Below are positions 36,165 through 53,488 of a stretch of 64,000 nt of DNA, piece after piece. The notes under the pieces were generated by a model. The model was not told the origin of the DNA. It was given only the letters and a program-made list of their open reading frames with translations, and did not search any database. A program made the translations under genes and the position numbers. This DNA is from Aneurinibacillus sp. (lineage in GTDB: Bacteria; Bacillota; UBA5301; DYFA01): positions 70,924 to 134,923 of the forward strand of contig DYFA01000045.1 in the NCBI GenBank assembly GCA_020725425.1, read 5' to 3'. Position 1 is the first letter of the stretch, and each line of letters begins with the position of its first letter.

Positions 36165-36186
36165 CGTGAATAATCCGTGAATAATC
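36165..36186. promoter_or_regulatory. Perfect 11-bp tandem direct repeat CGTGAATAATC x2 (candidate DeoR-family operator)
   Basis: Visible directly in the sequence. DeoR-family regulators commonly bind direct repeats. Confidence 0.3.
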
Positions 36187-36335
36187 TGGGAGGAGCCTCA
36201 GGCCTCCGGCTGGGGTGTCTCTGTGGCAACTTTCTGCTCATTTGCGCATAGTAGTTGACCGTTTAGCCATAACTGGTTATGATTATGGCAGGAGGCATTC
36301 CTGGCGGAGCCAGGCGTTATGCCGGGGAGGAAGTT

Positions 36336-37118: not shown

Positions 37119-38332
37119 GACCCCTTACTACCCCGGAAAGGATGCGGCCGATGAACGCTCTACAAAGCCTGCTCGCCGAAAGCGACCTCGAGAAAGCCCG
37201 TAGTAAAGGTCTGGCCTACACCCCGCGCGAGATCGCCCACCAACCCGAAGCCTGGTTCAAGACCGCCGAGAGGGTGCTGGAAGAGGCGCCGTTGGCCGGT
37301 TTCCTCCGGCAGGCCCTTGAACCGGCGGGACCCGTGATCCTGGCGGGGGCCGGCACCTCCTATTACGTTGGTACTTCAGTGCGCAACTTCCTGACCGCCT
37401 CCTGGAAGCGCACTGTCCTGGCGGTCCCTTCGACGGAGATCGTCCTCGCCCCCGACCTCTGCCTCCCCCGGGACGCCACCCTGATGATCAGCTATGCCCG
37501 GTCCGGGCAAAGCCCGGAGGGAAACGCCGCCTTGGAGCTGGCAAGACAGGTCCGGCCGGAGACGGCCCACCTGGCCGTCACCTGCAACCACGAGGGTCTG
37601 CTCTACCGGCTGGCTGGAGGGTGGCCGGGGGGCTTCCCGCTCCTCCTGCCCGAGATGACCAACGACCGGGGGCTGGCCATGACCAGTTCCTACTCGAGCA
37701 TGGTGGTCGCTACCTACGGGCTGGCCTTCCTGAACGAACCCGAAACCTATCTGTCCCTCGTCGAGAAGCTCGCCGTCACCGCCCGACGCATCCTGGACGC
37801 CGAAGCCGACGCCGCCCGGCAGATCGCCGAAATGCCCTTTGCCCGGGCGTTGTACGTGGGAAACCGCGACCTGTTCGGAGTGGCTCAGGAAGCCCACCTC
37901 AAGCTGCAGGAGATGAGCGCCGGCCGGGTGATCGGCAAGGCCGAAACCACCCTCGGTCTCCGCCACGGCCCGATGGCTTCGATCGACGACCAAACGCTGG
38001 TGGTCGTGTTCCTGTCTTCGGACCCCTATGTCCGCCGCTATGAGCTGGATCTCCTGCGCGAGCTGAAGAACCAGGGACTGGGCATGCTCCGGGTGGCGAT
38101 CGATGAGCAGGCTGACCTGGAGGTGGCGCCGCTGGTGGATCACCTCGTCGAGCTGCGCCTGGGCGGAACGCCGATGGGCGATCTCAGCCGGGCGCCGGCG
38201 GCGGTCATCTTTCCGCAGTTGTTGGCCCTTTTCCGGTCCCTCCATGAAGGGTTGCTGCCCGACGCCCCGAGCCCCAAGGGGGTGATTAACCGGGTGGTCC
38301 AAGGGGTGCGCATCTACCCCTACTCGGCCTGA
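37115..38332 (+). CDS. Double-SIS-domain sugar-phosphate isomerase/deaminase (AgaS / GlmS C-terminal-like)
   Basis: Two SIS domains (405 aa). Translationally coupled to the DeoR gene. Confidence 0.75.
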   Translation: MRPLTTPERMRPMNALQSLLAESDLEKARSKGLAYTPREIAHQPEAWFKTAERVLEEAPLAGFLRQALEPAGPVILAGAGTSYYVGTSVRNFLTASWKRTVLAVPSTEIVLAPDLCLPRDATLMISYARSGQSPEGNAALELARQVRPETAHLAVTCNHEGLLYRLAGGWPGGFPLLLPEMTNDRGLAMTSSYSSMVVATYGLAFLNEPETYLSLVEKLAVTARRILDAEADAARQIAEMPFARALYVGNRDLFGVAQEAHLKLQEMSAGRVIGKAETTLGLRHGPMASIDDQTLVVVFLSSDPYVRRYELDLLRELKNQGLGMLRVAIDEQADLEVAPLVDHLVELRLGGTPMGDLSRAPAAVIFPQLLALFRSLHEGLLPDAPSPKGVINRVVQGVRIYPYSA

Positions 38333-38343
38333 GACGCTCGATG

Positions 38344-38550
38344 TTACGGCAGCTCGTCCACCCGCCATTCTTCCTTGCCGGCCTTGGCGAGGAACCGGTC
38401 CGCTGCCGACAGGGCAAGGGCGTAGTCCTGATCGACGGTGGCTGCCGGTTCCTCGGCCAGCCGCCTCGGCGACCCGTTCCACCAGCCTCCGGCCCAGAAG
38501 GCCAAAAGGAGCAGGACCAGGGTCCCCAGAAAGACAATCCCGCGCCTCAT
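38344..38550 (-). CDS. Small membrane-anchored hypothetical protein (68 aa)
   Basis: RBS GAGGTG 6 nt upstream of the ATG. N-terminal TM 'IVFLGTLVLLLLAFWAGGWW'. Confidence 0.35.
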   Translation of the reverse strand: MRRGIVFLGTLVLLLLAFWAGGWWNGSPRRLAEEPAATVDQDYALALSAADRFLAKAGKEEWRVDELP

Positions 38551-38603
38551 CCGCGATCACCTCGGCTCTAAGGCTTCCACCGCAGCAGGCAAGCCTTTCA
38601 TCG

Positions 38604-39734
38604 CTAGATCAGAAGACGCTTGTATCGCTCGACCTCGGCCCGGACCTCTTGAGCCAGTCTCTCGTACTTGTCCGCCAGCCTGACCGTCCGGATCCGCTCC
38701 GCCCGGGGATCGGCCGGCACCAGGAACCCCTCCTCGATCCACCTCTTCGTCTTCTCCCGGACAGTCCGGTCCGCCAACCCGGTGAGGCGGCGCAGGTCCG
38801 TGGTAGTGGCGGTGCTGCTGCGGAGAGCCAGATGGGCAAAGACCGTCCGCTGGACGCCGTCCAGGTGACGGAGGAGGTCGGGCTCGACCGACACGAACTC
38901 CTGACTCTTCGCCTCCACCACTTTGGCCGCCTCCAGAAAGACCTCGCCCACGCCTTGCAGGAAGAAGTCCAGCCAAGGGGTGAGGTCGGCGTCGTGGCGC
39001 CCGAAGTAGTAGTTGTGATGCAAGCCCATCTGGAGATTGGCGTAATAAGCGGCCAGGTTCCGGTCGTAATAGGTTTCGAGTACGAACAGGCGCTTCAACC
39101 CGAGCCCGCCACGCCGCATGAGATAAGTGGCCAAAGCCCTGCCTGTCCGGCCGTTCCCGTCAAGATAGGGGTGGATCGTCAGGAACTGGTAGAGAAAGAT
39201 CCCGGCCTGGATGGGCACAGGCAGCTCGCTGGCCGCCGGATGGTTGATCCAGGCCACCAGATCCTCCATCAAGCGGGGGACGTCTTCCCACTCCGGGGGC
39301 AGGTATACGATGCGCCCCGTGGACTCGTCTCTTACGGCGTTCTGCTCTTTGCGGTACTCGCTTAGGCGCGGCCGCCGGCCGCCGGGGATGACCCTGATGA
39401 TTGCATGGACCCGCTTGATCAGTTCCTCCGTGACCGGCAGACCCCGCTCTTCGCACTCCTCCAGGTACTCCATCGCCTTATACAGGTTGGATACCTCTTG
39501 TTCGGCCGCCGACCTGGTGCGGGCATATAACGCGGTCCGCTTTTGGGCTTCACTCAGCCGGTTTCCTTCGAGTTTGGTCGAGAGCAACACAGTCTGGACG
39601 CGGGACTCCCGCTGGAGCTCCTTCAGGATGTTGGCCGGCAGCGGGAGGTGCTCCACCAGTGTATTGGCGCGCGCAATCTCCATCAGATTAGAGGCCATGC
39701 GAGGGGTGATCGAGAACCGCGGGGCAAACGGCAT
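38604..39734 (-). CDS. Class II Fic-family protein (AMP-transferase) with intrinsic inhibitory helix and C-terminal wHTH
   Basis: Fic motif 'HPYLDGNGRTGRAL'. Inhibitory motif 'STKLEGN' ([ST]xxxE[GN]) near the N-terminus. The likely start is the second Met (RBS GGAGG precedes it). Confidence 0.85.
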   Translation of the reverse strand: MPFAPRFSITPRMASNLMEIARANTLVEHLPLPANILKELQRESRVQTVLLSTKLEGNRLSEAQKRTALYARTRSAAEQEVSNLYKAMEYLEECEERGLPVTEELIKRVHAIIRVIPGGRRPRLSEYRKEQNAVRDESTGRIVYLPPEWEDVPRLMEDLVAWINHPAASELPVPIQAGIFLYQFLTIHPYLDGNGRTGRALATYLMRRGGLGLKRLFVLETYYDRNLAAYYANLQMGLHHNYYFGRHDADLTPWLDFFLQGVGEVFLEAAKVVEAKSQEFVSVEPDLLRHLDGVQRTVFAHLALRSSTATTTDLRRLTGLADRTVREKTKRWIEEGFLVPADPRAERIRTVRLADKYERLAQEVRAEVERYKRLLI

Positions 39735-39755
39735 AATAAAGCCTCCTCGGGCCAT

Positions 39756-39784
39756 ATTATACCATTGCCGCTAATTTGCCGCAA
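39756..39784 (-). promoter_or_regulatory. Sigma-70 type promoter for the Fic gene (-35 TTGCGG, 17-bp spacer, -10 TATAAT)
   Basis: On the minus strand: TTGCGG-CAAATTAGCGGCAATGG-TATAAT, immediately upstream of the Fic RBS. Confidence 0.5.
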
Positions 39785-40045
39785 TCAGGTACGCCCGCTC
39801 TTCCCGCGGCTGGGGCTCTTCCGGACGGGGCGGGGACGGAGCTTGATCTCCGGGGTGACGCCCGGGGGGAGCAGTTCCTTCACGTCCCGCTCGAACTGAC
39901 GGCGGGGCAGCATCACGATGTGGCCGCACCCCAGGCACTTCAGCCGGAAGTCCATCCCCACCCGCAGGACCTCCCAGGCGTCCGAACCGCAGGGGTGTTC
40001 CTTCCGCAGCCGGACCAGGTCGCCCACGTGGTAGCGGGTCACAGT
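39785..40045 (-). CDS. DUF951 family small protein
   Basis: 'HVGDLVRLRKEHPCGSDAWEVLRVGMDFRLKCLGCGHIVMLPRRQFERDVKELL' matches the DUF951 consensus. GTG start overlaps the mscS stop. The listed 140-aa ORF is an N-terminal over-extension. Confidence 0.7.
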   Translation of the reverse strand, partial: TVTRYHVGDLVRLRKEHPCGSDAWEVLRVGMDFRLKCLGCGHIVMLPRRQFERDVKELLPPGVTPEIKLRPRPVRKSPSRGKSGRT

Positions 40046-40977
40046 CACGGCTTGCCCTCCCCTTCCGGCCGGCCGGTAAGGACGGGCTCCGGGCCGGCGG
40101 GTCCGCTTCCCTTGACGATGAGCATCCGGTGCGGGAAGGGAATCTCGATCCCCTGGGCGTCGAAACGCTCCTTGATCAACCGCTTCAGCTCCCGCTCGAC
40201 CCCCCACTGCTCCATGGGGCGGGTGCGGGCCAGGACCCGGATCGCGACCCCCGACTCACCCAGCTCCTGGACGCCGAGGACGGCCGGAGCCTCCACCAGC
40301 CGGTCGTTGCCCTGGGCGTACTCCTCGAGGACCTGCTGCAAGACGGTGATGGCCTGCTCTAGATCGGTCCCGTAGGAGACCTCCACGTCGAACATCACCC
40401 GCATGGAGGGCCCCATGTGGTTCGTGACCTGGGTGATCTGGCCGTTGGGGATGATGTGCAGTTGTCCGCCGGGGTCGCGGATCTTGGTGATGCGGATACC
40501 CATCTCCTCCACGATCCCCGTCACCCCGCCGGCGGTGATGAGGTCGCCCACCCCGTACTGGTCCTCGAAGAGGATGAAGAAGCCCGTGATGACGTCCCGG
40601 ACCAGGTTCTGGGCCCCGAAGCCGATAGCCAGCCCGCCGATCCCGGCGGCGGTGAGAATCGAGGTGGTGTTGAACCCCAGGTTCTGAAGAACCATCACCC
40701 CGGCAAAGAAGTAGATGACGTACTGGGCGATGGAGGCGATCAGAGTGGAGAGGGTTTTAACCCGGCGCTCGTCGAGGTAGACGTGGCGTTCCGGCTGGAA
40801 GAGGCGGTTCACGAAGGTTTCGGCCACCTTCACCAGAAGGCGCGCCCCGACGACGATCGCCAGGAGCACCAGGACACGGCCGAGCGCCTCCAGCAGCGCG
40901 CCTCCCTCGACCATGCGTTTGAACCAGGCCTGAACCCCCGGAAGAGCAGTCAGCAGATAGTTCGTCGCCGTCGCCAA
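40045..40977 (-). CDS. MscS-family small-conductance mechanosensitive channel
   Basis: Three TM helices followed by the MscS beta domain ('...GDLITAGGVTGIVEEMGIRITKIRDPGGQLHIIPNGQI'). Confidence 0.85.
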   Translation of the reverse strand: MATATNYLLTALPGVQAWFKRMVEGGALLEALGRVLVLLAIVVGARLLVKVAETFVNRLFQPERHVYLDERRVKTLSTLIASIAQYVIYFFAGVMVLQNLGFNTTSILTAAGIGGLAIGFGAQNLVRDVITGFFILFEDQYGVGDLITAGGVTGIVEEMGIRITKIRDPGGQLHIIPNGQITQVTNHMGPSMRVMFDVEVSYGTDLEQAITVLQQVLEEYAQGNDRLVEAPAVLGVQELGESGVAIRVLARTRPMEQWGVERELKRLIKERFDAQGIEIPFPHRMLIVKGSGPAGPEPVLTGRPEGEGKP

Positions 40978-40988
40978 CCTGCCACCCC

Positions 40989-41861
40989 CTAGCGGAATCC
41001 TTCAAGCAGCCGCAGCGCCAGGGCCGGGTCACCCATGGGGAAGAGGTGCACCCCCGGCACCCTGCCCCAGAGCTCGGCCAGGATCTCCCGGGCGAGACGG
41101 ACGCCTTCGTCCGGGGCCCCTTTCTCCATGCGCTCCAGGATGAACGGCGGGATCCGGATTCCCGGCACGTGCGTGTTCAGGTAAACCGCCGACTTGTAGC
41201 TCTTGAGCGGCAACACGCCGTAGATCACCCGAACTCCGAGATGGGCCGTCCGGCGCCGGAACTCAGCCGCCTGCTCCAGGTCGAAGACGGGCTGCGTCTG
41301 GGCGAAGACGATCCCCGCCTCCACCTTGGCCTCGAGGCGCGCCGCCTCGACCTCCAGGTCCGGGGCGTTGGGGCTGGCCGTCCCGCCGATCAGGAAGTCG
41401 GTCGGAGCGTCCAAGGGTTTGCCGTTGCTGTCCTGGCCGGCGTTGAGCGTGCGGGCCAGCCTGGCCAGACCCAGGGCGTCCACGTCGAACACCCCGGTGG
41501 CCTGGGGGTGGTCGCCCCGTTCCGGCCGGTCTCCCGTCAGGGCCAGGATGTTCTTAACCCCGAGCGCCGCCGCCCCGAGCAGCTCGGCTTGCAGCCCCAG
41601 GAGGTTGCGGTCCCGGCAGGTCAGGTGGAAGATGGCCTCCACCCCCAGGTCCTGCTGGAGCAGGTGGGCGCAGGCGATGGGGCTCATGCGCAGGTTGGCC
41701 ATGGGGCTGTCCGCCACGTTCACCGCGTCCACCAGCGCCGCCAGCACGCCGGCCTTCGCCAGCATCGGACGGGGGTCGGACCCCCGGGGCGGCTCCAGCT
41801 CCACCGTAACCACGAACTCTCCCCGGGCCAGCTTCTGCCGGAGATTCTTTTCCTCCTCCAC
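40989..41861 (-). CDS. metF: 5,10-methylenetetrahydrofolate reductase
   Basis: 'FVVTVELEPPRGSDP...' with an MTHFR TIM barrel. 290 aa. Confidence 0.85.
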   Translation of the reverse strand: MEEEKNLRQKLARGEFVVTVELEPPRGSDPRPMLAKAGVLAALVDAVNVADSPMANLRMSPIACAHLLQQDLGVEAIFHLTCRDRNLLGLQAELLGAAALGVKNILALTGDRPERGDHPQATGVFDVDALGLARLARTLNAGQDSNGKPLDAPTDFLIGGTASPNAPDLEVEAARLEAKVEAGIVFAQTQPVFDLEQAAEFRRRTAHLGVRVIYGVLPLKSYKSAVYLNTHVPGIRIPPFILERMEKGAPDEGVRLAREILAELWGRVPGVHLFPMGDPALALRLLEGFR

Positions 41862-41887
41862 TACTCCCTGCTCCTCCCTGTCTCCTG

Positions 41888-44416
41888 CTACCCCCGCTCC
41901 CTACCGGCCGTCAGTTCCTGGGCCAGCCGGACCGCCGCCACGGCGTCCCGCCCGTAGCCGTCCGCCCCGATCTGCCGGGCGAACTCCTCGGTCACCACCG
42001 CCCCGCCCACCATGACCTTCGCCGGGAGGCCCGCCGCCTGCAGAGCCTCGATCACCCGGCCCATCCCGACCATGGTAGTGGTCATCAGAGCGGAGAGACC
42101 CACCAGCCCGGCCCGCTCCGCCCGGGCCGCCTCGACCACCCTCGCCGCCGGGACGTCCCGGCCCAGGTCGACCACTCGGAACCCGTGGTTCTCCAGCATG
42201 ACCGCCACGATGTTCTTCCCGATGTCGTGGATGTCGCCCTCCACGGTGGCCAGGACCACGGTTCCGCGGCCGGCCGGAGCGCCACCCCGGGCGAGGTGCG
42301 GTTTGAGCTCGGCGAAGGCCGCCCGGGCGGCGTCCGCCGAGAGCATCAACTGCGGTAGAAAGTATTCACCGGCCTCGTAGCGGCGTCCCACTTCCTCGAG
42401 AGCCGGCACCACCGCCCGATCTACGATCTCGAGAGGATCCGACCCGGCCAGGGCCTTGGCCACCAAGTTCGGCGTCTTTTCGGCTTCCCCTTCTACAATC
42501 GCCCGGTAGAGAGCGGCGACGCTGTCGCCCTCAGCCGCGGGAGGCGGTTCGGGCATCCGGGCGGCCGCCGGTGCAGGCAGAGAACCGGCAGTATCCGCCG
42601 CCTGCGGCCGCCGCTCCTCCTTGGGCTGAGTGGCCAGGTAGACCCGGGCGTGGCGGTCCCGGTTCACCAGGACCGCCCCCGCCTGCAGCGTCTCCCAGAC
42701 CCGGGCATCCAGGGGGTTGACGATGGCCGCGTCCAGCCCCGCCCCCAGGGCCATCGCCAGGAAGGTGGCGTTGAGCAGGGATCTTCCCGGCAGCCCGTGG
42801 GAGACGTTGCTGACCCCCAGGACCGTCCCCACCCCGAGCTCCTCCCGGATCAGCCGCACTGCCCGGAGCGTCTCGGCGACCTCGGCCTGCTGCGCCCCGG
42901 CCGCCAGGACCAGACAGTCGATCAGGAGCTCCTCCCGCCGCAACCCGGCCGCCTCCGCCGCCGCGACGATCCGGCGGGCGATTGCCAGCCGCTCTTCCGC
43001 CCGCGGAGGTATGCCTCGCTCATCCAGGGTCAACCCGAGGACGGCCGCCCCGTATCGCCGGGCGAGCGGCAGAACCTCCGCCAGGACCTCCTCCTTGCCG
43101 TTGACCGAGTTCAGCAGGGCTCGTCCGTGGAAGATCTCCAACCCGGCTGCCAGGGCCTGGGCGTTGGCCGAGTCGATGCTCAGCGGGACCGGCACAGCCG
43201 CCTCGACCGCCGCCACCGCCGCTCGCATCGCCGCGGCCTCGTCCACCCCGGGCACCCCGACGTTCAGGTCGAGCACCTTCGCCCCGGCGGCCACCTGCGC
43301 TTTGGCCTCGTCCCGGTAAACCCCGAATTCCCTCGCCCGCACCGCCTCGGCCAGCCTCTTCCGGGCGGTCGGGTTGAGCCGTTCGCCGATGACCACCGGC
43401 AGCTCCTCCGGCCCGATCGCCACCACTCCGCCCGGACCGGCGAGGAGGGTCCGCCGCGATCCTCCGGCCACCCGGGGGGCCCCACCCTTCCCCGCCGCCT
43501 CGACCGCCCGGCGGAGGGCCCGGATGTGGTCCGGCGTGGTGCCGCAGCAGCCGCCGACCAGCGTCGCCCCGGCCGCCAGAAGCTCCTCCCCGGCCCGCCC
43601 GAACTCCTCCGGCCCCTGGGGGTAGACAGCCCGTCCCGCCTCCAGGCGGGGCAGGCCGGCATTGGGCTGAACCGCCACCGGAACCCGCGCTACCGCCGCC
43701 ATCCGCCGGATAAGCGGGACCAGCTCCCGGGGCCCCAGCGAGCAGTTGGCCCCGAGGAAGATCGCCCCGAGCCCCTCCAACACCACGGCCACCGTCTCAG
43801 GATCGGCCCCCAAGAGAGTCCGCCCGTGAGCGTCAAAGGTGAAGGTGCAGGCCACCGGAATCCCCGCGTCCCGGGCCGCCAGAACTGCCGCCCGGGCCTC
43901 GCCCAGGTCGGAGAAGGTCTCCAGGAAGATGAAGTCCACCCCGCCGGCGGCCAGCGCCTCGATCTGCTCCCGGTAGACGTCGTAGGTTTCGGCAAAGGAA
44001 AGCGGCCCGAAGGGCTCGACGAACTCTCCGGTCGGCCCTACGTCCCCGGCGACCAGGGCGTTCCCGCCCGCCGCCGCCACCGCCTCCCGGGCGAGCCTGA
44101 CCCCGGCCTGGTTCAGCTCCGCCACCGCCCTGCCCAGCCCAAAGGCGGAGAGTTTTCGGCGGTTAGCACCGAAGGTGTTGGTGGTGACGACCCGAGCTCC
44201 GGCCTCCAGGTAGGCCTGATGGATCCTCCGGACGGCCTCCGGACGGGCGGTGTTCCAAGTCTCCGGGCACTCCCCGGGGCGTAACCCGGCCGCGATGAGC
44301 TGAGTTCCCATCGCCCCATCCAGCAGGACCGGCCCCCGGTCGAGGAACACCCCAAGCCGCGCCGGACCCGGTCGGGCCACTTCGTTTCGCCGTCCGTCGC
44401 CCATCTGCGTCACCAT
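41888..44416 (-). CDS. metH: Cobalamin-dependent methionine synthase, short form (Hcy-binding + pterin-binding + B12-binding; no AdoMet reactivation domain)
   Basis: 'LLDGAMGTQL', pterin-binding domain, and B12 motif 'DIHDIGKNIV'. The ORF ends after the B12 domain. The ORF N-extension is spurious. Confidence 0.85.
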   Translation of the reverse strand: MVTQMGDGRRNEVARPGPARLGVFLDRGPVLLDGAMGTQLIAAGLRPGECPETWNTARPEAVRRIHQAYLEAGARVVTTNTFGANRRKLSAFGLGRAVAELNQAGVRLAREAVAAAGGNALVAGDVGPTGEFVEPFGPLSFAETYDVYREQIEALAAGGVDFIFLETFSDLGEARAAVLAARDAGIPVACTFTFDAHGRTLLGADPETVAVVLEGLGAIFLGANCSLGPRELVPLIRRMAAVARVPVAVQPNAGLPRLEAGRAVYPQGPEEFGRAGEELLAAGATLVGGCCGTTPDHIRALRRAVEAAGKGGAPRVAGGSRRTLLAGPGGVVAIGPEELPVVIGERLNPTARKRLAEAVRAREFGVYRDEAKAQVAAGAKVLDLNVGVPGVDEAAAMRAAVAAVEAAVPVPLSIDSANAQALAAGLEIFHGRALLNSVNGKEEVLAEVLPLARRYGAAVLGLTLDERGIPPRAEERLAIARRIVAAAEAAGLRREELLIDCLVLAAGAQQAEVAETLRAVRLIREELGVGTVLGVSNVSHGLPGRSLLNATFLAMALGAGLDAAIVNPLDARVWETLQAGAVLVNRDRHARVYLATQPKEERRPQAADTAGSLPAPAAARMPEPPPAAEGDSVAALYRAIVEGEAEKTPNLVAKALAGSDPLEIVDRAVVPALEEVGRRYEAGEYFLPQLMLSADAARAAFAELKPHLARGGAPAGRGTVVLATVEGDIHDIGKNIVAVMLENHGFRVVDLGRDVPAARVVEAARAERAGLVGLSALMTTTMVGMGRVIEALQAAGLPAKVMVGGAVVTEEFARQIGADGYGRDAVAAVRLAQELTAGRERG

Positions 44417-44967
44417 CCCCTGCCAGGCAGGGCGCCGCCCCACCCGGTCGCCGAATCCCGCCTTGCCTCTGCCCCCGGCTTGACAGCTTTGCGCATGGAG
44501 ACCACCGGCACCCGGGCGCCGTCCGAGCGCACCACAACCCGCTCGTCGTAGGCCTCGTATCCCAGCGAGGCATACAGCCGGACGTTCTGCTGTATTTCCG
44601 CCCGGACGTTGCACCAGACAACGCTCTCCCCGTTCTGCCGGGCGTACTCCTCGAGCCAGCCAACGATTGCCCTGGCTATGCCCCTTCGCCGGAAACCCGG
44701 CCGCACCGCAAGGCGTTTGAAATAGAGGCCGTCCTTCGAACGGAGGAACCGGACGGACCCCACCGCCACGCCGTCCACCAGACAAAGCGCTGCTTGCTCC
44801 ACGCCCTCCCGCATGAGGCCCTCGACGTCCTCCAGGCTCTCGCTCAGCGCCCCCGATGGGGTAGGCAGGTTGCGGTACTCTGCGAAGGCGTCGAGCGTCA
44901 CTGAATGAACCAGCGGGGCCTCCTCCGGGGTCGCCAACCGGATCTCCACTTCACCCTGACTGTTCAT
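44410..44967 (-). CDS. GNAT-family N-acetyltransferase
   Basis: 'FKRLAVRPGFRRRGIARAIVGWLEEYARQNG' acetyl-CoA-binding motif A. Start 'MNSQGEV'. Confidence 0.75.
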   Translation of the reverse strand: MNSQGEVEIRLATPEEAPLVHSVTLDAFAEYRNLPTPSGALSESLEDVEGLMREGVEQAALCLVDGVAVGSVRFLRSKDGLYFKRLAVRPGFRRRGIARAIVGWLEEYARQNGESVVWCNVRAEIQQNVRLYASLGYEAYDERVVVRSDGARVPVVSMRKAVKPGAEARRDSATGWGGALPGRGW

Positions 44968-46835
44968 GTTCCCACCGCCTTGCCACGCCGCCGCCCGTTC
45001 CAGGCCTCGGTCGCATACTTGAGCCGCACCAGCTCCTCTGCCCGGGAGCACTCCCCCGGCGTGAGCTCGCCCGGGGCCAGGACCACTCCGAACACCTCCG
45101 CCACCCCCGCGGCCACCGCCTCGACCACCTCCGTGAAGGCGGGGACCCGGCCCAGCACTCCCTCGAGCGAGGCGACGCCGTCCACCAGCGCTCGCCGCAA
45201 TCGCTCCCGGGCCGAGCGGGAGGGAAGCGCCAGACAGCGCAGGAGCTGATCGGGATCGAAACGCAAGAGAATCGAGCCGTGCTGGAGGATAGCCCCGGAC
45301 CGCCGGACCTGGGCCGAGCCGACCAGCTTCCGCCCCTTCACCACCAGTTCGTAGAAGGAAGGGGAGTCGAAGCAGGCCGCCGAGCGCTCCCCGCCCCGAT
45401 GCTTCGCCGGCGCCATCTCGGCCGGTGCCCCCAGCCGCCGCAACCCGGCCGCCAGCCCTTCGCCGATCGCCCGGTAGGTCTCGCTCACCGAAGACCCGGA
45501 GAAGCGGGGGTGCCCCTCCGGAACGACCACGGCATAGGTGACCTCTTCGGCGTGGAGCACCGCCCGTCCTCCAGTCGGCCGCCGGACACAGTCGAACCCC
45601 TGGGCGGCGCAGCCCTCCAGGTCGATCTCCTGCTCCCGGTCCTGGAAGTAGCCGAGGGAGAGGGCCGGCGGGTTCCAGCCGTAAAACCGCAGCGTCGGTG
45701 GGGCCTCGCCCCGGCCGACCGTCTCCATCAGAGCCTCGTCCACGGCCATGTTCCAGGCACCGGAGGCGAAACCCGTATCAAGCAGTCGCCAGGTTTCCCC
45801 GACAGGGAGAGCCACTGGCGTGAGCGGCGGCCGAGCCGTCTCCGGGAGACCCGCCTCCCTCAGGGCCCGCTCCGTCTCCTCCTCGCCCAACGGCCGGGGG
45901 TAATTGTAGGTAATGCCTCCGGGGCGCTCGGTGTAGTATGGCCGGTTGCAGTCCGGGCACCCGGAGGTCCGGAACGCCTCCCCCCCGGCCAGCGCCTCGC
46001 GGAGGTCCGCCGGAGACAGGCCGAAGCCGACCAGCCGCCCCTCAGGGTCGAAGGCGAAGGGTCGTCCGTCCGGCGCGACGCGGCCGGTAGCCAAAAGCCA
46101 CCGGGCGATCTGGAGCCGCCGGTAGACTGCCAGGTCAGGCGGGGCCTGTTCGGCAAGGGCGGTCCCGGGGACCGGGGTGAAGGCGAAAAGGCCCACCGTC
46201 AACCCGAGCCGGTGGAGCAGGAGCAGCGCCTCCGCCGCCTCCTTCTCCGACTCGCCCAGCCCGACGATCAGGTGGGTGGAGATCCGCCCCGGGAAGGCCG
46301 CCGCTGCCTCGCCCAGGAGATCCAGCAGGCGGGTGAAGCTGCCGCCCTTGACCCGGCGGAAGACCTCCGGCGTGGCGGCGTCCAGGGGAATACCGACCCG
46401 CTCGACGCCAAGTCTCAGCCATTCCCCCACTTCGGCGGCGTTCTTTGGCCTCACGGAGAGGCTGAGCGGCGGGTGAAGGGTCCCTTCGAGGGCAGAGAGG
46501 AAGGAGGCGACCCGTTCCCGCCAGCAGGGAGCGCTCACCACCTGCAGGCATAACCGGCGGAAGGGCGAGCCCTGCAGCGCCGCCAGGATCTCCTCATCCG
46601 CAAAGGCCGGCCAGGTCACCCGGGAGAGCCGGTCCGCCCGGCCCCGCGCCGTCCGGGCCTGGGGACAGAAGGCGCAGTCGGCCAGGCACCGCCCCTCGAG
46701 CAGAAGATAGGCGGTGGTAGGCGGGTCGCTCTGCCGGACCCGGGCTAAGCCCAGGACCCCGGCGGTACCCAGCGAAAGGCGCACGGTCGTCCTCCTTGTC
46801 AGGGATTTCCGGATGCGCTGAGAAAGGCGCAGCAC
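44964..46835 (-). CDS. Fusion protein: radical-SAM domain (LipS-like) + lipoate-protein ligase/octanoyltransferase (LplA/LipM BPL_LplA_LipB) domain
   Basis: N-terminal 'CLADCAFC' (CxxxCxxC). C-terminal 'GETWRLLDTGF...RFYGWNPPALSLGYFQ...RRPTGGRAVLH...KLVGSAQVRRSGAILQHGSIL' carries the lipoyl-ligase catalytic Lys motif. Confidence 0.7.
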   Translation of the reverse strand: MLRLSQRIRKSLTRRTTVRLSLGTAGVLGLARVRQSDPPTTAYLLLEGRCLADCAFCPQARTARGRADRLSRVTWPAFADEEILAALQGSPFRRLCLQVVSAPCWRERVASFLSALEGTLHPPLSLSVRPKNAAEVGEWLRLGVERVGIPLDAATPEVFRRVKGGSFTRLLDLLGEAAAAFPGRISTHLIVGLGESEKEAAEALLLLHRLGLTVGLFAFTPVPGTALAEQAPPDLAVYRRLQIARWLLATGRVAPDGRPFAFDPEGRLVGFGLSPADLREALAGGEAFRTSGCPDCNRPYYTERPGGITYNYPRPLGEEETERALREAGLPETARPPLTPVALPVGETWRLLDTGFASGAWNMAVDEALMETVGRGEAPPTLRFYGWNPPALSLGYFQDREQEIDLEGCAAQGFDCVRRPTGGRAVLHAEEVTYAVVVPEGHPRFSGSSVSETYRAIGEGLAAGLRRLGAPAEMAPAKHRGGERSAACFDSPSFYELVVKGRKLVGSAQVRRSGAILQHGSILLRFDPDQLLRCLALPSRSARERLRRALVDGVASLEGVLGRVPAFTEVVEAVAAGVAEVFGVVLAPGELTPGECSRAEELVRLKYATEAWNGRRRGKAVGT

Positions 46836-47662
46836 TCGTCATAAGGGACCAGCGCCCGGCCCTGAGCCGCCGCGAGTCGGCGCGCCGCCGGCGCCGGCTG
46901 GACGATGGCGTCCACCCCCGCCTCCACCGCCGCTACATCGAGTGCCTCCCGGTACCGCCCCCCCGGGCGCATGCAGCCCAGGGTGAGCCGGGCGCCGGGC
47001 AGGCGTTTCCGGGCGGCGGAGAGGAAGGCTGCCACCTCCTCGACCGGCGGGGCGCTCCGCCCCGCGTAGCGGGTCCCGGGCGTCGGGATGAAGACGAGCA
47101 CCACCAGGGCGTCGACTCCTTCCGCCACTAACCGGTCCAGGGCCGCGCCTTCCGGGCCGAGCCCGCCGCCGCGCAACCCGAGGCAGAGGTGGGGCACTAC
47201 AGGGAGCCGGGCCCGCAACGCCCGCAGGGCGGCCACGAACCTTTCCGGGCCGGCCTCTAAGCCGTAGACCTCCCGCAGCGTATCAGCGTCCGCGACGAAG
47301 TCGAGCGAGGCGACGTCCGCCCAGCCGGCGAGCGCCTCGGCTTCCGCCTCCTCCACCAGGCCGGGATGGGCGTTCAACCGGAACCGGCGGCGCAACCGGC
47401 GCAGCCGGCCGGCCTCCCGGGCCAGCGGCACCACGCCCCGGCGGTCACATCCCCCGCTGACGAGCAGGCTCTTGATTCGCCGCCAGCTTCTCCCTTCCTC
47501 CTGACCGGCCTCAACCGGCTCCAGCCCGACGGTGCGCAGATCGGCCATCCCGGCCAGGTATCGCCGGCCGCAGTGGGCGCAGTTCAGGGCGCACTCCGTC
47601 CCGGTGACGCTCACCGCCCGGGTCGCCCGGGGCCAGACGCAGATCAGCGGCCGGGGGTCCAC
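46799..47662 (-). CDS. Second radical-SAM protein (LipS partner-like)
   Basis: '[10 protein letters not shown]' CxxxCxxC, a TIM-barrel-like alternation, and a C-terminal CC pair. Confidence 0.6.
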
Positions 47663-49101
47663 CGCAGGTCGGGCTGGCGGGCCGCCCGGGCCTCGTCGAG
47701 GCGGCGGACCGGCGTGTGGTGCGGAGCGTCCTTCACCAGCTCCGGTTCCTCTTCCGCCTCCCGGGCAATCTGAGCCATGGCCGCCGCGAAGGCATCCAGC
47801 GTCTGCTGACTCTCGGTCTCGGTCGGCTCGATCATCAGCGCCTCCTCGACGATCAGCGGGAAGTAGATCGTCGGGGCGTGGAAGCCGAGGTCCAGGAGGC
47901 GTTTCGCCATGTCCAGGGTATGGACGCCCCGGGCCTTCTGCCGGCTCCCTGAGAGCACGAACTCGTGCATGCAGGTCCGGTCGAAGGGCACCGCGAAGTG
48001 CGGCCGCAGCTTCACCCGCAGGTAGTTGGCGTTCAGCACGGCGTCCTCGCTCACCTGCTCGAGCCCCTCCGGCCCCACCGCCCGCAGGTAGGCGTAGGCC
48101 TTGAGCGCCACCAGGAAGTTGCCGTAGAACGCCTTGACCTTGCCGATGGACTGCGGCCGGTCGTAGGCCAGGCGGAACCCGTCCGGTCCCTTTTCCACCA
48201 CCGGCACCGGCAGGAACGGCACGAGCGCCTCCTTGACGCCGACCGGCCCCGAGCCCGGGCCGCCGCCGCCATGAGGCGTGGCGAAGGTCTTGTGGAGGTT
48301 CAGATGGACCACGTCGAAGCCCATGTCGCCGGGGCGGGCCTTACCCAGAATAGCGTTGAGGTTGGCCCCGTCGTAGTACAGGAGGGCGCCGGCAGCGTGC
48401 ACGGTCCGGCTGATCTCGACGATCTGCTCCTCGAAGAGCCCCAGCGTGTTAGGGTTGGTCAGCATCAGGGCCGCCGTGTCGGGGCCGACCGCCGCCCGGA
48501 GTCTCTCCAGGTCCACCATGCCCCGCTCATCGGAGGGCACGGAGACCACCTCGAACCCGGCGAGAGCGGCCGAGGCCGGGTTGGTCCCGTGGGACGAGTC
48601 CGGGACCAGGACCTTCTTCCGCTGCTCTCCCTCGCCCCGGGCCCGGTGATAAGCAGCGATGAGGAAGAGGCCGGTCAGCTCGCCGTGGGCCCCCGCCGCC
48701 GGCTGCATGGTCATTCTGGCCATCCCCGTGACCTCGCAGAGGTCCCGCTCCAGCTCCCAGAGGAGCGCCAGCGCCCCCTGGACGGTCGTCTCCGGCTGGT
48801 AGGGGTGCAGCCCGGCGAAGCCCGGCAGTTCCGCCACCGCCTCGTCGATCTTGGGGTTGTACTTCATCGTGCAGGAGCCGAGCGGGTAGAAACCGACGTC
48901 CACTCCGTAGTTCAGCCGGGAGAGGTTGGTGAAGTGGCGGACCACGTCCACCTCGCTCACCTCGGGCAGCATCGGCGCCTCCTTGCGCAGCGCCTTCGCC
49001 GGCAGAAGCCGCTCCACGGGCTTCTGCGGCACGTCCGCCGCGGGGAGAGAGTAGCCGCGCCGCCCGGGAGACGAGATCTCGTACAACAACGGCACGCTCA
49101 T
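47644..49101 (-). CDS. gcvPB: Glycine dehydrogenase (decarboxylating) subunit 2
   Basis: Start '[17 protein letters not shown]'. PLP-Lys region present. ATGA overlap with gcvPA. Confidence 0.9.
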
Positions 49102-50447
49102 GCCCGCTTCGCCTCCTCCGCCAGCGCCTCGACCAGCCGGTCGATCGCCGCCTTGCTCTTCGTCTCCGTGACACAGACCAGCAGGGCGTCGGTCAAGTCC
49201 GGGTAGAACCGCCCCAGCGGCAGTCCGGGCAGGATCCCCCTCGCCGCCAGCCGTTCGGCCAGCTCCTCCGCCGGCCCCGGCACCCGCACTACGAACTCGT
49301 GGAAGAACGGCCCCGGGAAGGCAAGTTTGAAGCCGGGCAGAGCGCTCAAGCGGTCCGCGGCATAGTGGGCCTTCTGTAGGCAAAGCTCAGCCAGTTCTTT
49401 TAGCCCCTGCGGCCCCAGGAGCGAGAGATGCACGGTGAAGGCGAGGGCGCAGAGCGCCTCGTTGGAGCAGATGTTGCTCGTGGCCTTCTCCCGCCGGATG
49501 TGCTGTTCCCTCGTCTGGAGGGTCAAGACGAACCCCCGCCGCCCGTCCCGGTCCACCGTGGCGCCGACGATCCGCCCCGGCATCCGCCGGACCAGGCTCT
49601 CCCGGGCGGCCATAAAGCCCACGTACGGCCCGCCGAACCCGAGAGGGTTGCCGAGCGGCTGTCCCTCACCCACGCAGAGGTCCGCCCCGTAGGCCCCCGG
49701 CGCTTCGAGCAGCCCGAGGCTCACCGGGTTAGCGACCACGATGAGGAGCGCCCCCTTGGCGTGGGCCGCCTGGGCCAACTCTTCCCCGGCCTCCACCAGC
49801 CCGAAGAAGTTGGGGTTCTGCACGATGACGGCCGCCGTCTGTTCCGAGACCTGCGCTGCCGCCGCCGCCGGGTCGAGCGCCCCCTCCGGCGCCGGCAGTT
49901 CCCGGACCGTCACCTCCCACTGCCGGGTGTAGGTCTTGAGAACCTCCCGGTATTCCGGGTGGACGTTCGCCCCGATCAGAACCTCCGTCCGCCGGGTGTG
50001 GGCGAGGGCCATCGCCGCCGCCTCGGCCACCGCCGTGGCCCCGTCATAGAGCGAGGCGTTCGCCACGTCCAGCCCGGTCAGAGCCGCCACGTAGCTTTGG
50101 AACTCGTAGATCGCCTGAAGGGTCCCCTGGCTGACCTCCGGCTGGTAAGGGGTGTAAGCGGTGTAAAACTCGGCCCGCCCGGTGAGCTGGCCGACCGCGG
50201 CCGGGACGTAGTGCTCGTAGGCCCCGGCGCCCAGGAAAGAAAGGAGCCCGTTAGTGGGCGTGTTCCGCCCGGCCAGCGCCTGGAGGTGGCCCGCCAGTTC
50301 CATCTCGGAGAGGGGTCCCGGCAAATCCAGCGGGCGGCGGAGCCGAACCGCCTCCGGGATCGGGGCGAAGAGTTCCTCGACCGACTTGACCCCGCAGGCC
50401 TTGAGCATCTCCGCCCGCTCCCGCTCGGTGTGCGGCAGGAAGTTCAT
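49098..50447 (-). CDS. gcvPA: Glycine dehydrogenase (decarboxylating) subunit 1
   Basis: '[20 protein letters not shown]...[16 protein letters not shown]'. Confidence 0.9.
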
Positions 50448-50839
50448 CGGCCGCCGCCTTCTTCCCCTCCGACGAAGGCCGCATAATCGTCGGCCGACAG
50501 CAGGTTATCCAGCTCGCCCGGGTCGGACAGCTCGATCACCGCGATCCAGCCGTCCCCGTAGGGATCCTGGTTGATGGTCTCCGGATGGTCGGAGAGGTTC
50601 TCGTTCACCTCGACCACCGTTCCGGAGACCGGGGCGTAAACCTCGGAGACCGCCTTGACCGACTCGACCACCGCGAACTCCCCGCCCTGGGTGGTCGTGT
50701 CCCCCACCGCCGGCAGCTCGACGAAGACGACGTCCCCCAGCTCCTTCTGGGCGTGGTCGGTGATCCCCACGATCGCCCGCTTCCCTGAGACCCTGACCCA
50801 CTCGTGTTCCCGGGTGTATTTCAGCTCCTTCGGATACAT
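50444..50839 (-). CDS. gcvH: Glycine cleavage system H protein (lipoyl carrier)
   Basis: 'MYPKELKYTREHEWV...ESVKAVSEVYAP' with the lipoyl-Lys in 'SVKA'. Confidence 0.9.
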   Translation of the reverse strand: MYPKELKYTREHEWVRVSGKRAIVGITDHAQKELGDVVFVELPAVGDTTTQGGEFAVVESVKAVSEVYAPVSGTVVEVNENLSDHPETINQDPYGDGWIAVIELSDPGELDNLLSADDYAAFVGGEEGGGR

Positions 50840-50948
50840 CAGTCGCCCTCCTCCGCTCTTGATTCCCGTATAATTCCGGGCCTCCGTTTCCGGCTCCTGC
50901 CAGTGTCGAGCCGGAGTGTTGACACTTCGCTCAACTACGCTCATACGT

Positions 50949-52094
50949 CTATGCGCCGGGTGCGGCCGGCTGCTTGGGCGGCTTGCAGGTGCGGGCGGGG
51001 ACGAACGGCGTCCGCACCACCTTGGCCGGCACCGCCTTCCCCCGGATCTCGACCCCGATCTCCTGGCCCTCCGCCGCCAGATCAGCCCGTAGATACCCCA
51101 GCCCGATGTTCCGGCCCAGGGTCGGAGAGAAGGACCCGCTCGTGACCTCCCCCGCCGCCGCCCCATCCGGCGCCTTGAGCCCGTAGCCGTGGCGGGCCAC
51201 GCCGCCCTCCACGACGAACCCGGCGAGCTTCCGCTTGACCCCCTCCGCCTGCTGTTTGAGCAGCGCCTCCCGGCCGATGAACTCGCCCTTCTCCAGCTTC
51301 ACCACCCAGTTCAGGCCGGCCTCGAGGGGCGTCGTTTCGTCCGTCAGGTCGTTGCCGTAGAGCGGGTAAGCCATCTCCAGCCGGAGCGTGTCCCGAGCCC
51401 CCAGCCCGACCGGAACCAGGCCCAGCGGCTCACCCACGGCCAGGAGTCTCCGCCAGAGCCTCGGCGCCTCCGCCGCGGCCACGTACAGTTCGAACCCGTC
51501 CTCCCCGGTGTAGCCGGTCCGGGCGATGATCGCCGGAACCCCGTCGGCCTTCCCCTCCACGAAGCGGTAGTAGTAGAGTTCCCCCAGCGACTGGTCCGCC
51601 ACCTGGGCCACGATGTCGGCCGCCTTTGGCCCCTGCACCGCGATCAGCGCCGTCTCCAGGGTGGCATCCCTGAGCTCCACGCCGGGGCCCGGCCCCTGGG
51701 CGGCTACCCAGGTCCAGTCCTTGGTCACGTTGGCCCCGTTCACCACCACCATGAACCCCCTGGTCCGCCGGTAGACGACGATGTCGTCCACCACCCCGCC
51801 GGACGGGTTGAGGAGCATGGAGTAGTGGGCCTGCCCGACCGCCAGCCTTCCTAGGTCGTTGGTCGTCAGCCGCTGCAGGAAGGCCTCGGCTCCCGGCCCC
51901 TCGACAAAGAACTCGCCCATGTGGGAGAGATCGAAGAGACCGGCCTTCTCCCGGGTGGCCACGTGCTCGGCGACGATGCCTGTATACTGGACCGGCATCT
52001 CCCAACCGCCGAAAGCGGTGAAGCGGGCTCCCAGGGCCTGGTGTTCGGCATGGAGCGGGGTCCGTTTGAGGGCTTCACGGGTCTGGTTCTCCAC
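50949..52094 (-). CDS. gcvT: Aminomethyltransferase (glycine cleavage T protein)
   Basis: GTG start with RBS GGAGGGAG. '[29 protein letters not shown]'. Confidence 0.9.
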
Positions 52095-52132
52095 AGCTGT
52101 CTCCCTCCGTTCGGTACTGTTTCCCCAGTCCC

Positions 52133-52175
52133 CCAAAAAGAAAAGACAGGGGAACGCGCCCGTTCCTCTGTCCTT
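52133..52175 (-). terminator. Intrinsic terminator forming the riboswitch expression platform
   Basis: RNA 'GGAACG-GGCG-CGUUCC' hairpin followed by 'CCUGUCUUUUCUUUUU', about 40 nt upstream of the gcvT RBS. Confidence 0.5.
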
Positions 52176-52360
52176 CTCGCCTGAGAGATGCCCTGGGCGA
52201 CTTTCCCTCCGCCCGGGTTGCTCCTTCGGCGGGCTTTGCGCCGCCTCTCCAGAGTGCCGTCCTCCCGGGCTTCCGCTTGCCTGAGAGTTTCAGCGAGGGT
52301 GGCCGCTCCTCGCCTTGCTCCTTCGGCGCCCGACTCTCCGGGTCTCTCCCCCGGGACTCC
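52147..52360 (-). ncRNA. Tandem glycine riboswitch (two aptamers)
   Basis: Minus-strand RNA aptamer 1: 'GGGGGAGAG...GCGCCGAAGGAGCAAGG...ACUCUCAGGCAAG'. Aptamer 2: 'CUCUGGAGAG...GCCGAAGGAGCAACC...UCUCUCAGGCGAGAAGGACAGAG'. Both match the glycine riboswitch consensus and sit upstream of gcvT. Confidence 0.85.
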
Positions 52361-52585
52361 TCCGGCCGGTATGCGATTGTCGGTCGCTTCAAGTCTATTC
52401 GCCCGCTGCTATTATTGGGCACCGGCGGGGCCAATTCCTGCCAGACCCGGACCCCCTGGCGCGGGGAGACATATAATGGCGCCAGAACGGGCGATGGTCC
52501 CAGGGAAAGTGGGGTGGAAGGATGGAGACCCTTCTGCAGCGGCTGGTCAATCCGATTCTCAGGCGGTGCAACCGCACGGTCATCC

Positions 52586-53488
52586 TCATCTGGCGCCGCC
52601 ACCGGTAATCTCCTGCGCGAAGCCGGCGATCAGGCCGGCCACGTGCTCCGGCTGCTCCAGGGGGCTCAGGTGGCCGGCTTCCGCTATGTCTGCCCGCCGG
52701 GCGCCTGGCACCAGCTCCATCAGGTCCTGGGTCGCCTCGGCCGGCAGGGCCGGGTCCTCCTCGCCCCGCCCCACCAGGACCGGCCGGGCGATGCCCCTCA
52801 GCTCCTCCCGGAGGGCCACCAACTCCTCCTCCGGGGTGGTCCCCACCCCCTCGATCAGCTTGGTCAGCGTCCACACCGCCTCCGGCCGGCTGAAGGCCTT
52901 GGTACCTTCCTCCACCAACTCTTCCGGGATCTCTCCCCCCGGCCGCCAGAGCCGGCGCAGGATCCCCCGGAGCCCTCCCAGCTGCCCCAAGCGGAAGACC
53001 CCGGCCATGAACGACGGCCGGGCGGCGAAGAGCGTGATCCAGGGGAAGGGATGATAGGGCGAGGCGGTGGCGTCCAAAGCAGCTACCCCCGCGACCAGCT
53101 CCGGCCGACGCGCCGCCAGCCGCAAGGCCAGCAGCCCGCCCAGGTCGTGCCCGGCGACCACCCATCGCTCGGCCCCGGCCAGGTCCGCCAGCAGAGCCTC
53201 CACCAGGCCGGTCAGGCCGCTCAAGGTATACGAAAAGCCCAGAGGCTTGTCGCTCCCCCCCATCCCGACCAGGTCCACAGCGACCACCCGGTGTCCCCGC
53301 TCGCCCAGCAGAGGCGCCACCCCCCTCCAGGTCAAGGAGGCCAGCGGGACCCCGTGGAGCAGGAGGATGGGCCTGCCCCTCACCCCCTCCCCCTCTGGAC
53401 AAGCGGAAGGCGGCCCGGGCACCTCCCAGACCGCCATTCTGACTCCACCCAGCTCCGCAAATCTCCCGGCCTCGCCTCTTCCGGACAA
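52586..53488 (-). CDS. Alpha/beta-fold hydrolase
   Basis: 'ILLLHGVPLAS', nucleophile elbow 'GHDLGG', and a C-terminal His. Confidence 0.75.
   Translation of the reverse strand: MSGRGEAGRFAELGGVRMAVWEVPGPPSACPEGEGVRGRPILLLHGVPLASLTWRGVAPLLGERGHRVVAVDLVGMGGSDKPLGFSYTLSGLTGLVEALLADLAGAERWVVAGHDLGGLLALRLAARRPELVAGVAALDATASPYHPFPWITLFAARPSFMAGVFRLGQLGGLRGILRRLWRPGGEIPEELVEEGTKAFSRPEAVWTLTKLIEGVGTTPEEELVALREELRGIARPVLVGRGEEDPALPAEATQDLMELVPGARRADIAEAGHLSPLEQPEHVAGLIAGFAQEITGGGAR

Follow-up and report, generated by a model that had tools for sequence, protein, structure and literature searches.

Can the supply of methyl groups for methionine be placed under the control of glycine? The question is raised by a gene row in a 64-kb window (the whole stretch of DNA analyzed, from contig DYFA01000045.1 of Aneurinibacillus sp. 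assembly GCA_020725425.1; G+C content 67.7%), in which a glycine riboswitch is followed by genes for the glycine cleavage system (gcv), for lipoylation, and for the methionine synthase MetH and the methylenetetrahydrofolate reductase (MTHFR) MetF. The row lies entirely on the minus strand, at 39785..52365. The answer we lean toward is that two older units were fused in one uncultured Bacillota clade to give this row, a one-carbon operon inducible by glycine.

Organization of the gene row

Starts were picked from start codons and Shine-Dalgarno (SD) sequences, protein families were assigned with Pfam and NCBIfam, and RNA elements with Rfam. By these models the array holds 11 open reading frames (ORFs), all co-directional, and the models agree with the calls on contig JASEFQ010000016.1 of GCA_030019095.1, a metagenome-assembled genome (MAG) labelled "Bacillota bacterium" that encodes an exact protein match. 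The gene order, 5' to 3', is gcvT-gcvH-gcvPA-gcvPB-lipS1-lipS2::ligase domain-GNAT-metH-metF-mscS-DUF951:

52444..52095, minus strand: leader, upstream of gcvT
50949..52094, minus strand: gcvT (aminomethyltransferase), 381 aa; PF01571 328.6 bits, PF08669; GTG start with GGAGGGAG as SD sequence
50444..50839, minus strand: gcvH (lipoyl carrier H protein), 131 aa; PF01597 155.4 bits
49098..50447, minus strand: gcvPA (glycine dehydrogenase subunit 1), 449 aa; PF02347 434 bits; ATGA overlap with gcvH; exact protein on JASEFQ010000016.1
47644..49101, minus strand: gcvPB (glycine dehydrogenase subunit 2), 485 aa; PF21478 and PF02347; ATGA overlap with gcvPA
46799..47662, minus strand: lipS1 (radical SAM), 287 aa; NF053742 LipS1 256.7 bits against a cutoff of 230
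44964..46784, minus strand: lipS2 fused to an LplA-catalytic/LipM-like domain, 606 aa; NF053743 LipS2 340.2 bits against a cutoff of 270; PF21948 136 bits
44410..44967, minus strand: GNAT acetyltransferase, 185 aa; PF00583
41888..44404, minus strand: metH (cobalamin-dependent methionine synthase), 838 aa; PF02574, PF00809, PF02607, PF02310
40989..41861, minus strand: metF (methylenetetrahydrofolate reductase, YitJ C-terminal type), 290 aa; PF02219 121 bits; NF006396 308 bits over the MTHFR half
40045..40977, minus strand: mscS-type mechanosensitive channel, 310 aa; PF00924, PF21082, PF21088
39785..40048, minus strand: DUF951 protein, 87 aa; PF06107 101 bits; GTGA overlap with mscS

The junctions measure 106 to 109 nucleotides (nt) between gcvT and gcvH, then −4 (to gcvPA), −4 (to gcvPB), −19 (to lipS1), 14 (to lipS2::ligase), −4 (to GNAT), 5 (to metH), 26 (to metF), 11 (to mscS) and −4 nt (to DUF951), and four of them are ATGA/GTGA stop-start overlaps. 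A preliminary description, made from the letters of the sequence, had counted twelve genes on one strand with all stops and starts overlapping or no more than 30 nt apart. The common strand and the gene content agree with our Pfam and NCBIfam assignments, as do the identities of the gcv, metH and metF products and the one-carbon logic that links them. The count has to be lowered to 11: LipS2 and the ligase-like domain make up a single 606-aa protein and were probably taken as two. The spacing holds for nine of the ten junctions (all at most 26 nt), with gcvT-gcvH as the sole exception. Short same-strand gaps are strongly associated with co-transcription. At the other end of the row, a Fic-domain gene follows DUF951 at 29 to 50 nt on the same strand with no terminator between the two, so that the sequence leaves the 3' end of the unit undefined.

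A tandem glycine riboswitch heads the row

The tandem glycine riboswitch with a terminator-type expression platform that had been proposed upstream of gcvT was recovered by the Rfam models, together with a stable hairpin:

52258..52361, minus strand: glycine riboswitch aptamer 1; RF00504, 51.1 bits (gathering score 32), full-length model match
52158..52262, minus strand: glycine riboswitch aptamer 2; RF00504, 39.9 bits (gathering score 32), second half searched alone
52135..52173, minus strand: intrinsic terminator (expression platform), GGACAGAGGAACG-GGCG-CGUUCCCCUGUC followed by UUUUCUUUUU

The aptamers are contiguous (52361..52158), with one terminator after them, and an end-to-end alignment to the tandem clan model covers both. 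The leader belongs to the ordinary glycine riboswitch class, since its score against the variant glycine-GGAnGA model (RF03166), 60.9 bits, is far under the gathering score of 110; its cores are of the standard GGAGAG type. The terminator hairpin has a minimum free energy of −22 kcal/mol (z = −3.0) and was also picked up by the terminator scan. Because its 5' arm is the 3' strand of the aptamer-2 P1 helix, the two having GGACAGAGG in common, a ligand-stabilized P1 and the terminator would be mutually exclusive. The leader is in its architecture a terminator-type ON platform, for which glycine binding and relief of termination are predicted; such ON logic upstream of gcv genes has been described for glycine riboswitches (PMC2258182, PMC6944388). 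Both aptamers and the terminator are kept in three close relatives (L163, L165 and L169; loci of relatives are given L numbers), with compensatory changes in the terminator stem. Inside the array, the Rfam search at E ≤ 10 gave no credible match besides the glycine riboswitch. Rfam scans were preferred to a regular expression for the aptamer core, which missed loci with Rfam-confirmed aptamers.

The sign of the switch also bears on the direction in which the pathway would run. Some anaerobes can run the glycine cleavage system in reverse, and the host lineage is an uncultured one within Bacillota, so the array could in principle serve glycine synthesis (reverse glycine cleavage in a reductive glycine pathway), with MetF and MetH tied to methyl-branch flux. 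A glycine-ON switch would, however, induce the genes at high glycine, the opposite of a biosynthetic need, and the homocysteine-binding domain of MetH marks it as a true methionine synthase. This reading was rejected on the sign of the switch, and we regard it as very improbable.

Two leaders of distant gcv-lipS loci fit the variant glycine-GGAnGA model rather than the standard one, with scores above the gathering threshold: those of Carboxydothermus islandicus (L053 2418..2598; 123.9 bits) and of a Desulfitobacterium MAG (L025 4087..4277; 111.7 bits).

The metH-metF extension in relatives

Methionine genes in Bacillota are known for control by the S-box, the SAM-I riboswitch that senses S-adenosylmethionine (SAM), as for yitJ and metE of Bacillus subtilis. 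The preliminary description had called the gcv-metHF linkage unusual for that reason and had suggested a comparison of operon structure in relatives. MetH homologues form a close tier at 72 to 85% identity, after which identity drops to 57%. In all seven close-tier relatives with readable contigs (L163, L165, L166/167, L168, L169, L173 and L174), the order lipS1-lipS2/ligase-(GNAT)-metH-metF-mscS is kept, with DUF951 next in most; the gcv genes lie upstream wherever the contig reaches far enough, and in three the riboswitch as well. As called, the gap into metH in this clade ranges from −20 to +107 nt, and the value of +107 nt in L165 is probably an overestimate, the MetH alignment starting 93 nt upstream of the called start. 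A gap of at most 107 nt, and probably less, is too short for an S-box leader. In L168, L169 and L173, metH overlaps the upstream gene or lies within 4 nt of it.

Outside the close tier, metH and metF stand apart from gcv in all four outgroups (L170, L171, L172 and L175), in line with the claim that the linkage is unusual. L170 and L175 (57% identity) carry metH-metF-DUF951-cheW-rpsF-ssb-rpsR with a divergent ABC transporter upstream and no gcv. In L171 (56%), a SAM-I riboswitch of 96.6 bits directly precedes metH, and in L172 (Caldinitratiruptor, 53%) one of 76.7 bits directly precedes metF-x-metH. The AT-rich region upstream of metH in L170 gave no Rfam match at E ≤ 1 (L175 lay outside the scan). 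The statement that metF and metH are normally under SAM riboswitch control agrees with L171 and L172 and not with L170.

For distant loci, we used the LipS2::ligase protein as bait against one genome per GTDB species, which gave 80 loci. About 34 Bacillota loci share gcvPB-lipS1-lipS2(/ligase) in identical order, most with the full gcvT-H-PA-PB set upstream; gcvPB-lipS1 loci include those of Symbiobacterium, Sporomusa, Carboxydothermus, Desulfitobacterium, Limnochordia, Frackibacter and many MAGs. Rfam scans of 14 of these outgroup loci placed a glycine riboswitch before gcvT in 12 and an S-box in none. MetH or metF was found within 10 kb in none of the 80 distant gcv/lipS loci. In six outgroups, the ligase gene is followed within 100 nt by a strong canonical terminator; the finder used there was home-made and noisy, and just these six matches were convincing. 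Judged by gene order, the riboswitch-gcvTHP-lipS1-lipS2/ligase block is widespread in Bacillota and its components are known, while the metH-metF extension is confined to one small clade and is no general design. Among GTDB species representatives, no LipS2-ligase relative exceeded about 54% identity, the close ones being present only in a large protein collection, and a metagenome scan with MetH returned only relatives of 40 to 48% identity, all without gcv.

Near-identical operons also occur in relatives' MAGs that bear the labels Betaproteobacteria (GCA_050260635.1) and Chitinophagales (GCA_050260095.1). Both resemble Bacillota in gene content and synteny, and they are probably mis-binned or mislabelled.

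Internal signals and the extent of the transcript

A consensus scan of the array found no promoter on the operon strand, and its only convincing terminator was that of the riboswitch. We also applied a permissive scan (−10 element at 5/6 positions or more plus a TTG-type −35 or an extended −10) to six clade loci; no SigA-like promoter was found between gcvT and DUF951, and no intrinsic terminator inside the array. The permissive scan recovered, as a positive control, TTGnnn-N17-TGgTATAAT before rpsF in L163, L166 and L169, and an element of this type is also present in the window directly after the DUF951 stop codon, where the next transcription unit starts:

39756..39784, minus strand: extended −10 promoter-like element, TTGCGG-N17-(TG)gTATAAT

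The S-box model RF00162 had no match in the 64-kb window at the gathering score or in 39500-52800 at E ≤ 10, and Rfam found no SAM-I aptamer in five clade loci (L163, L165, L166, L168 and L169). The remark that no internal promoter or S-box is obvious thus withstood these scans, which also gave no terminator between gcv and metHF. A single transcript across the array is plausible and modestly favored, and we infer that read-through from the leader would make metHF expression dependent on glycine.

The largest gap of the row calls for separate treatment. The leader promoter region and the gcvT-gcvH spacer share a bipartite motif:

52411..52444, minus strand: putative gcv promoter region, CTGGCAGGA-N19-AATAAT, about 50 nt upstream of aptamer 1
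50840..50948, minus strand: gcvT-gcvH spacer (106 to 109 nt), with a second motif copy and two small hairpins

The spacer copy reads CTGGCAGGA-N19-AATTAT (50903..50870, minus strand), and the 64 kb contain the pattern CTGGCAGGA-N19-AAT(A/T)AT only at these two places. The leader copy is kept in L163 and partly in L165 and L169; the spacer copy is conserved in L163, has a degenerate counterpart in L165 and is missing from the spacer of L169. The motif may act as a promoter or operator, or the spacer copy may serve in mRNA processing or stability. A sigma-54 reading was rejected for wrong spacing; both copies loosely resemble a sigma-H-type promoter, a reading that we regard as tentative.

One could therefore propose that a second promoter in the spacer (50903..50870) drives gcvH to metF without glycine, so that only gcvT would be strictly gated by the riboswitch. 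The 9-mer CTGGCAGGA with an AT-rich hexamer at equal spacing, found only at the leader promoter region and the spacer, its conservation at both places in L163 and the presumed sigma-H likeness all speak for such a promoter. The pattern was, however, defined after both copies had been seen, which makes the statistic circular, it is degenerate in L165 and missing from the L169 spacer, and the two small conserved hairpins of the spacer (GCCG-GAAA-CGGC type) suit an mRNA processing or stability element equally well. We consider a glycine-independent spacer promoter improbable.

Co-transcription of the array is plausible from spacing, conservation and missing internal signals. Several points weigh against a single glycine-controlled operon: the gcv promoter is itself not SigA-consensus-like, so the scan would miss a similar promoter within the array; GC-rich hairpins without U-runs lie between GNAT and metH in L163 and L166; the bipartite motif in the promoter region and the spacer could mean riboswitch-independent transcription from gcvH on; and making methionine synthesis depend on glycine alone seems hazardous, unless the genome encodes another methionine synthase or there is basal read-through.

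Some of these points would suit an arrangement of at least two abutting units, in which the riboswitch controls gcv and lipoylation, and metH-metF(-mscS-DUF951) keep a promoter inside the 3' coding sequence of the upstream gene. Such an embedded promoter would be a relic of a stand-alone metH-metF-DUF951 unit, and the tight packing would reflect genome compaction rather than co-regulation. That metH-metF-DUF951-rpsF is separate from gcv in the nearest outgroups L170 and L175, with AT-rich DNA upstream of metH in L170, fits this arrangement, as do the variable gaps before metH (5 to about 75 nt; −20 to +107 as called), the hairpins in L163 and L166 and the insensitivity of the scan to promoters like that of gcv. 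Against it, no −10/−35-like element was seen inside the array in six genomes, metH overlaps or nearly touches the preceding gene in L168, L169 and L173, and the terminator found after the ligase gene in six outgroups is missing here. Even with an internal promoter, riboswitch read-through would add glycine-dependent expression. On this evidence we judge separate abutting units to be unlikely, though still to be taken seriously.

A small ORF divergent from the gcv promoter

A conserved 28-codon ORF, METLLQRLVNPILRRCNRTVILIWRRHR, lies on the plus strand at 52522..52608, divergent from the gcv promoter. At 87 nt it is shorter than gene callers usually accept. Its length is shared by four clade members (the others being L163 1887..1801, L165 2276..2190 and L169 913..827, minus strand), and a 29-codon version is found upstream of gcvT in outgroup L043 (5542..5453, minus strand). 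The substitutions favor third codon positions; the versions end in three different stop codons and share a conserved SD sequence. A TATAAT box is present at 52472..52477. The 28-aa product had no Pfam or NCBIfam match. The ORF may encode an unannotated small protein linked to gcv loci.

LipS1/LipS2 lipoylation genes between gcv and metH

Lipoylation genes had been placed between gcv and metH, and this was correct; what had gone unrecognized was that they specify a LipS1/LipS2 system with a fused ligase or transferase domain. By family assignment they encode the two-protein lipoyl synthase LipS1/LipS2 and not lipA/lipB. PF04055 matches both proteins, with the CxxxCxxC motifs CALNCAHC in LipS1 and CLADCAFC in LipS2. 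In Thermococcus kodakarensis, the two proteins jointly build the lipoyl group, LipS2 acting first at C8 and LipS1 then at C6; this order of sulfur insertion has been shown only for that organism (PMC9585515). Genome-neighborhood networks reported earlier (PMC9585515) already place bacterial LipS1/LipS2 in clusters with GcvH and a lipoate ligase.

The fusion protein has LipS2 at residues 1-296 and the ligase-like domain at about 330-600 (the C-terminal ~275 residues). The latter is of the catalytic type only (PF21948/PF03099), and no LplB accessory domain was found by Pfam or NCBIfam in the fusion protein or the operon. Among solved structures, it comes closest to the catalytic subunit of Thermoplasma LplA (2ARS, E = 1.8e-21). 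A LipM-type lineage derived from archaeal LplAB occurs with lipS1/S2 in some bacteria (Tanabe et al., PMC10332631), and the domain, a putative transferase or ligase, fits this lineage. Its motif AACFDSPSFYE has a Cys that may correspond to the catalytic Cys of B. subtilis LipM. The fusion recurs in dozens of genomes and in about 40 protein clusters and is therefore not an assembly artefact; in L168 it is split into two genes. Public annotation calls it "hypothetical protein" or "biotin synthase".

The GNAT gene that follows is optional within the clade, being absent from L165, L169 and L173. One 784-aa protein on a JGI contig (P0124), a close relative at 76% identity, is a LipS2-ligase-GNAT triple fusion whose GNAT part is 61% identical to that of the window. 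This single contig, in which a frameshift artefact is possible, hints that GNAT belongs with the lipoylation module.

MetH, MetF and the mscS-DUF951 pair

MetH has the homocysteine-binding, pterin-binding, B12-cap and B12-binding domains. No AdoMet reactivation domain was found: PF02965 had no match, and TIGR02082 aligns only over model positions 7-857 of 1182, below its cutoff. By homologue lengths, the short form is common in Bacillota. The array lacks a gene for a MetH reactivation partner; in L172, metH is followed by a RACo-like gene.

The inclusion of mscS and DUF951 in a one-carbon unit was less well borne out. They adjoin the row, and in the clade they lie upstream of rpsF-ssb-rpsR, with which they also travel in lineages that lack this operon; in L027, L030 and L043 they are found near gcv-lipS with metHF absent. 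From this distribution, the pair is probably a legacy neighbor of rpsF and stands outside the one-carbon logic.

Proposed mechanism and origin

For the glycine-inducible operon that we favor, the following sequence of events can be proposed. Transcription would start at the promoter some 50 nt ahead of the leader. When glycine is scarce, the 3' strand of aptamer-2 P1 would pair downstream to form the terminator, and transcription would stop before gcvT; with glycine bound in the tandem aptamers, P1 would form, the terminator would be blocked and RNA polymerase would read on. The read-through product would supply the glycine cleavage proteins T, H, P-alpha and P-beta, the machinery for the lipoyl arm of the H protein, the optional GNAT, and MetF and MetH. 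On the H protein, the LipM/LplA-type domain would attach octanoate, to which LipS2 would add the C8 sulfur and LipS1 then the C6 sulfur. Glycine cleavage would yield 5,10-methylene-tetrahydrofolate (THF), MetF would convert it to 5-methyl-THF, and MetH would pass the methyl group onto homocysteine, giving methionine and regenerating THF. Co-induction would thereby provide a one-carbon sink for glycine catabolism, THF recycling and lipoylation of newly made H protein, with mscS and DUF951 carried along as former neighbors of the rpsF region.

As to origin, an older metH-metF-(mscS)-DUF951 unit by rpsF and the widespread riboswitch-gcv-lipS operon would have been joined in the clade ancestor, and the terminator and promoter between them would have been lost on joining; this direction of fusion is the one we infer. 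It could further be hypothesized that a regulon swap took place, in which metH and the MTHFR gene traded SAM (S-box) feedback for glycine feed-forward, so that methyl supply and H-protein cofactor maturation would be gated in a single 12-kb transcript. We put this forward tentatively, as somewhat short of probable.

Other features of the window and of related loci

Between DUF951 and rpsF, the window holds about 13 kb (~26700..39755), compared with at most about 3 kb in relatives and 0.1 kb in L169. The stretch encodes a Fic-domain protein, a SIS-domain protein, a YhfX-like/alanine-racemase-N protein, a sugar-type ABC transporter and an M20 peptidase, and the rpsF-type extended −10 promoter now precedes the Fic gene. 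Judged against the relatives, the stretch is a lineage-specific insertion. Elsewhere in the window, a c-di-GMP-I riboswitch (55.5 bits) was found at 5298..5387 (minus strand), and a KAP-family P-loop NTPase is encoded at 53594..55852 (minus strand), upstream of a hydrolase gene. Further upstream (L081 953..4555), a class II-like ribonucleotide reductase carries an intein with a LAGLIDADG domain.

In related loci, L169 has a NiCo riboswitch (14884..14970, 42.4 bits) upstream of a P-type ATPase gene, between rpsR and a MazG-like gene. L043, which lacks lipS1/S2 and has no detectable glycine riboswitch, carries a T-box leader of 121 bits (10904..11161) directly downstream of its gcv-ligase operon.

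Relation to known systems and meaning

As summarized in PMC2258182 (citing Mandal et al. 2004), the B. subtilis gcvT-gcvPA-gcvPB operon lies behind a tandem glycine riboswitch. The present locus shares with that description two aptamers with one expression platform, the terminator-based ON logic and glycine cleavage genes that would be induced at high glycine. Unlike that three-gene operon, it spans about 12.3 kb and 11 genes, adding gcvH, lipS1, lipS2::ligase, GNAT, metH, metF, mscS and DUF951. Its lipoylation genes resemble the LipS1/LipS2 pathway (PMC9585515; bacterial sLpl(AB)-LipS1/S2, PMC10332631) in scores above the equivalog cutoffs, in the CxxxCxxC motifs and in adjoining GcvH and a ligase homologue. 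They differ from it in that LipS2 is fused to a catalytic-only ligase or transferase, with no LplB and no lipT, and in their setting, a glycine-riboswitch gcv operon instead of a sulfur-oxidation (sHdr) cluster.

B. subtilis has 11 SAM-I elements (PMC2258182). The locus shares with the S-box regulon the enzymes themselves, MetH and a YitJ-type MetF, and the outgroups L171 and L172 retain the S-box upstream; here, in contrast, metH abuts the preceding gene, and the sole upstream riboswitch would sense glycine and act as an ON switch rather than as an end-product OFF switch. Catalogued contexts of glycine riboswitches comprise gcv genes, transporters and the Streptomyces gcvT-gcvH-glyA-sdhA operon (PMC6944388, PMC12452182). 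The latter is likewise a glycine-riboswitch gcv operon extended by one-carbon and amino-acid genes, although in another phylum and with serine hydroxymethyltransferase and serine dehydratase as the extension (PMC12452182) where the present one has lipoyl synthesis and metH/metF. In the open-access literature, we found no report of metH or metF in a glycine-riboswitch unit. The riboswitch, the gcv genes and LipS1/LipS2 are all members of known families, and what is new is the clade-specific attachment of metH-metF behind them, where two of the four outgroups have S-box control.

The findings leave current understanding standing. In many Bacillota, LipS1/LipS2, often fused to a ligase or transferase, lie inside a glycine-riboswitch gcv operon, an arrangement undiscussed in the main text of the cited literature; cofactor assembly and apoprotein are therefore probably co-induced in such bacteria. 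If metHF are indeed reached by read-through, the clade would offer a natural case of a biosynthetic step that moved from SAM end-product repression to substrate-side induction by glycine. A simple operon fusion would then have changed the regulatory input, which would inform both the evolution of riboswitch regulons and the turnover of THF in glycine catabolism.

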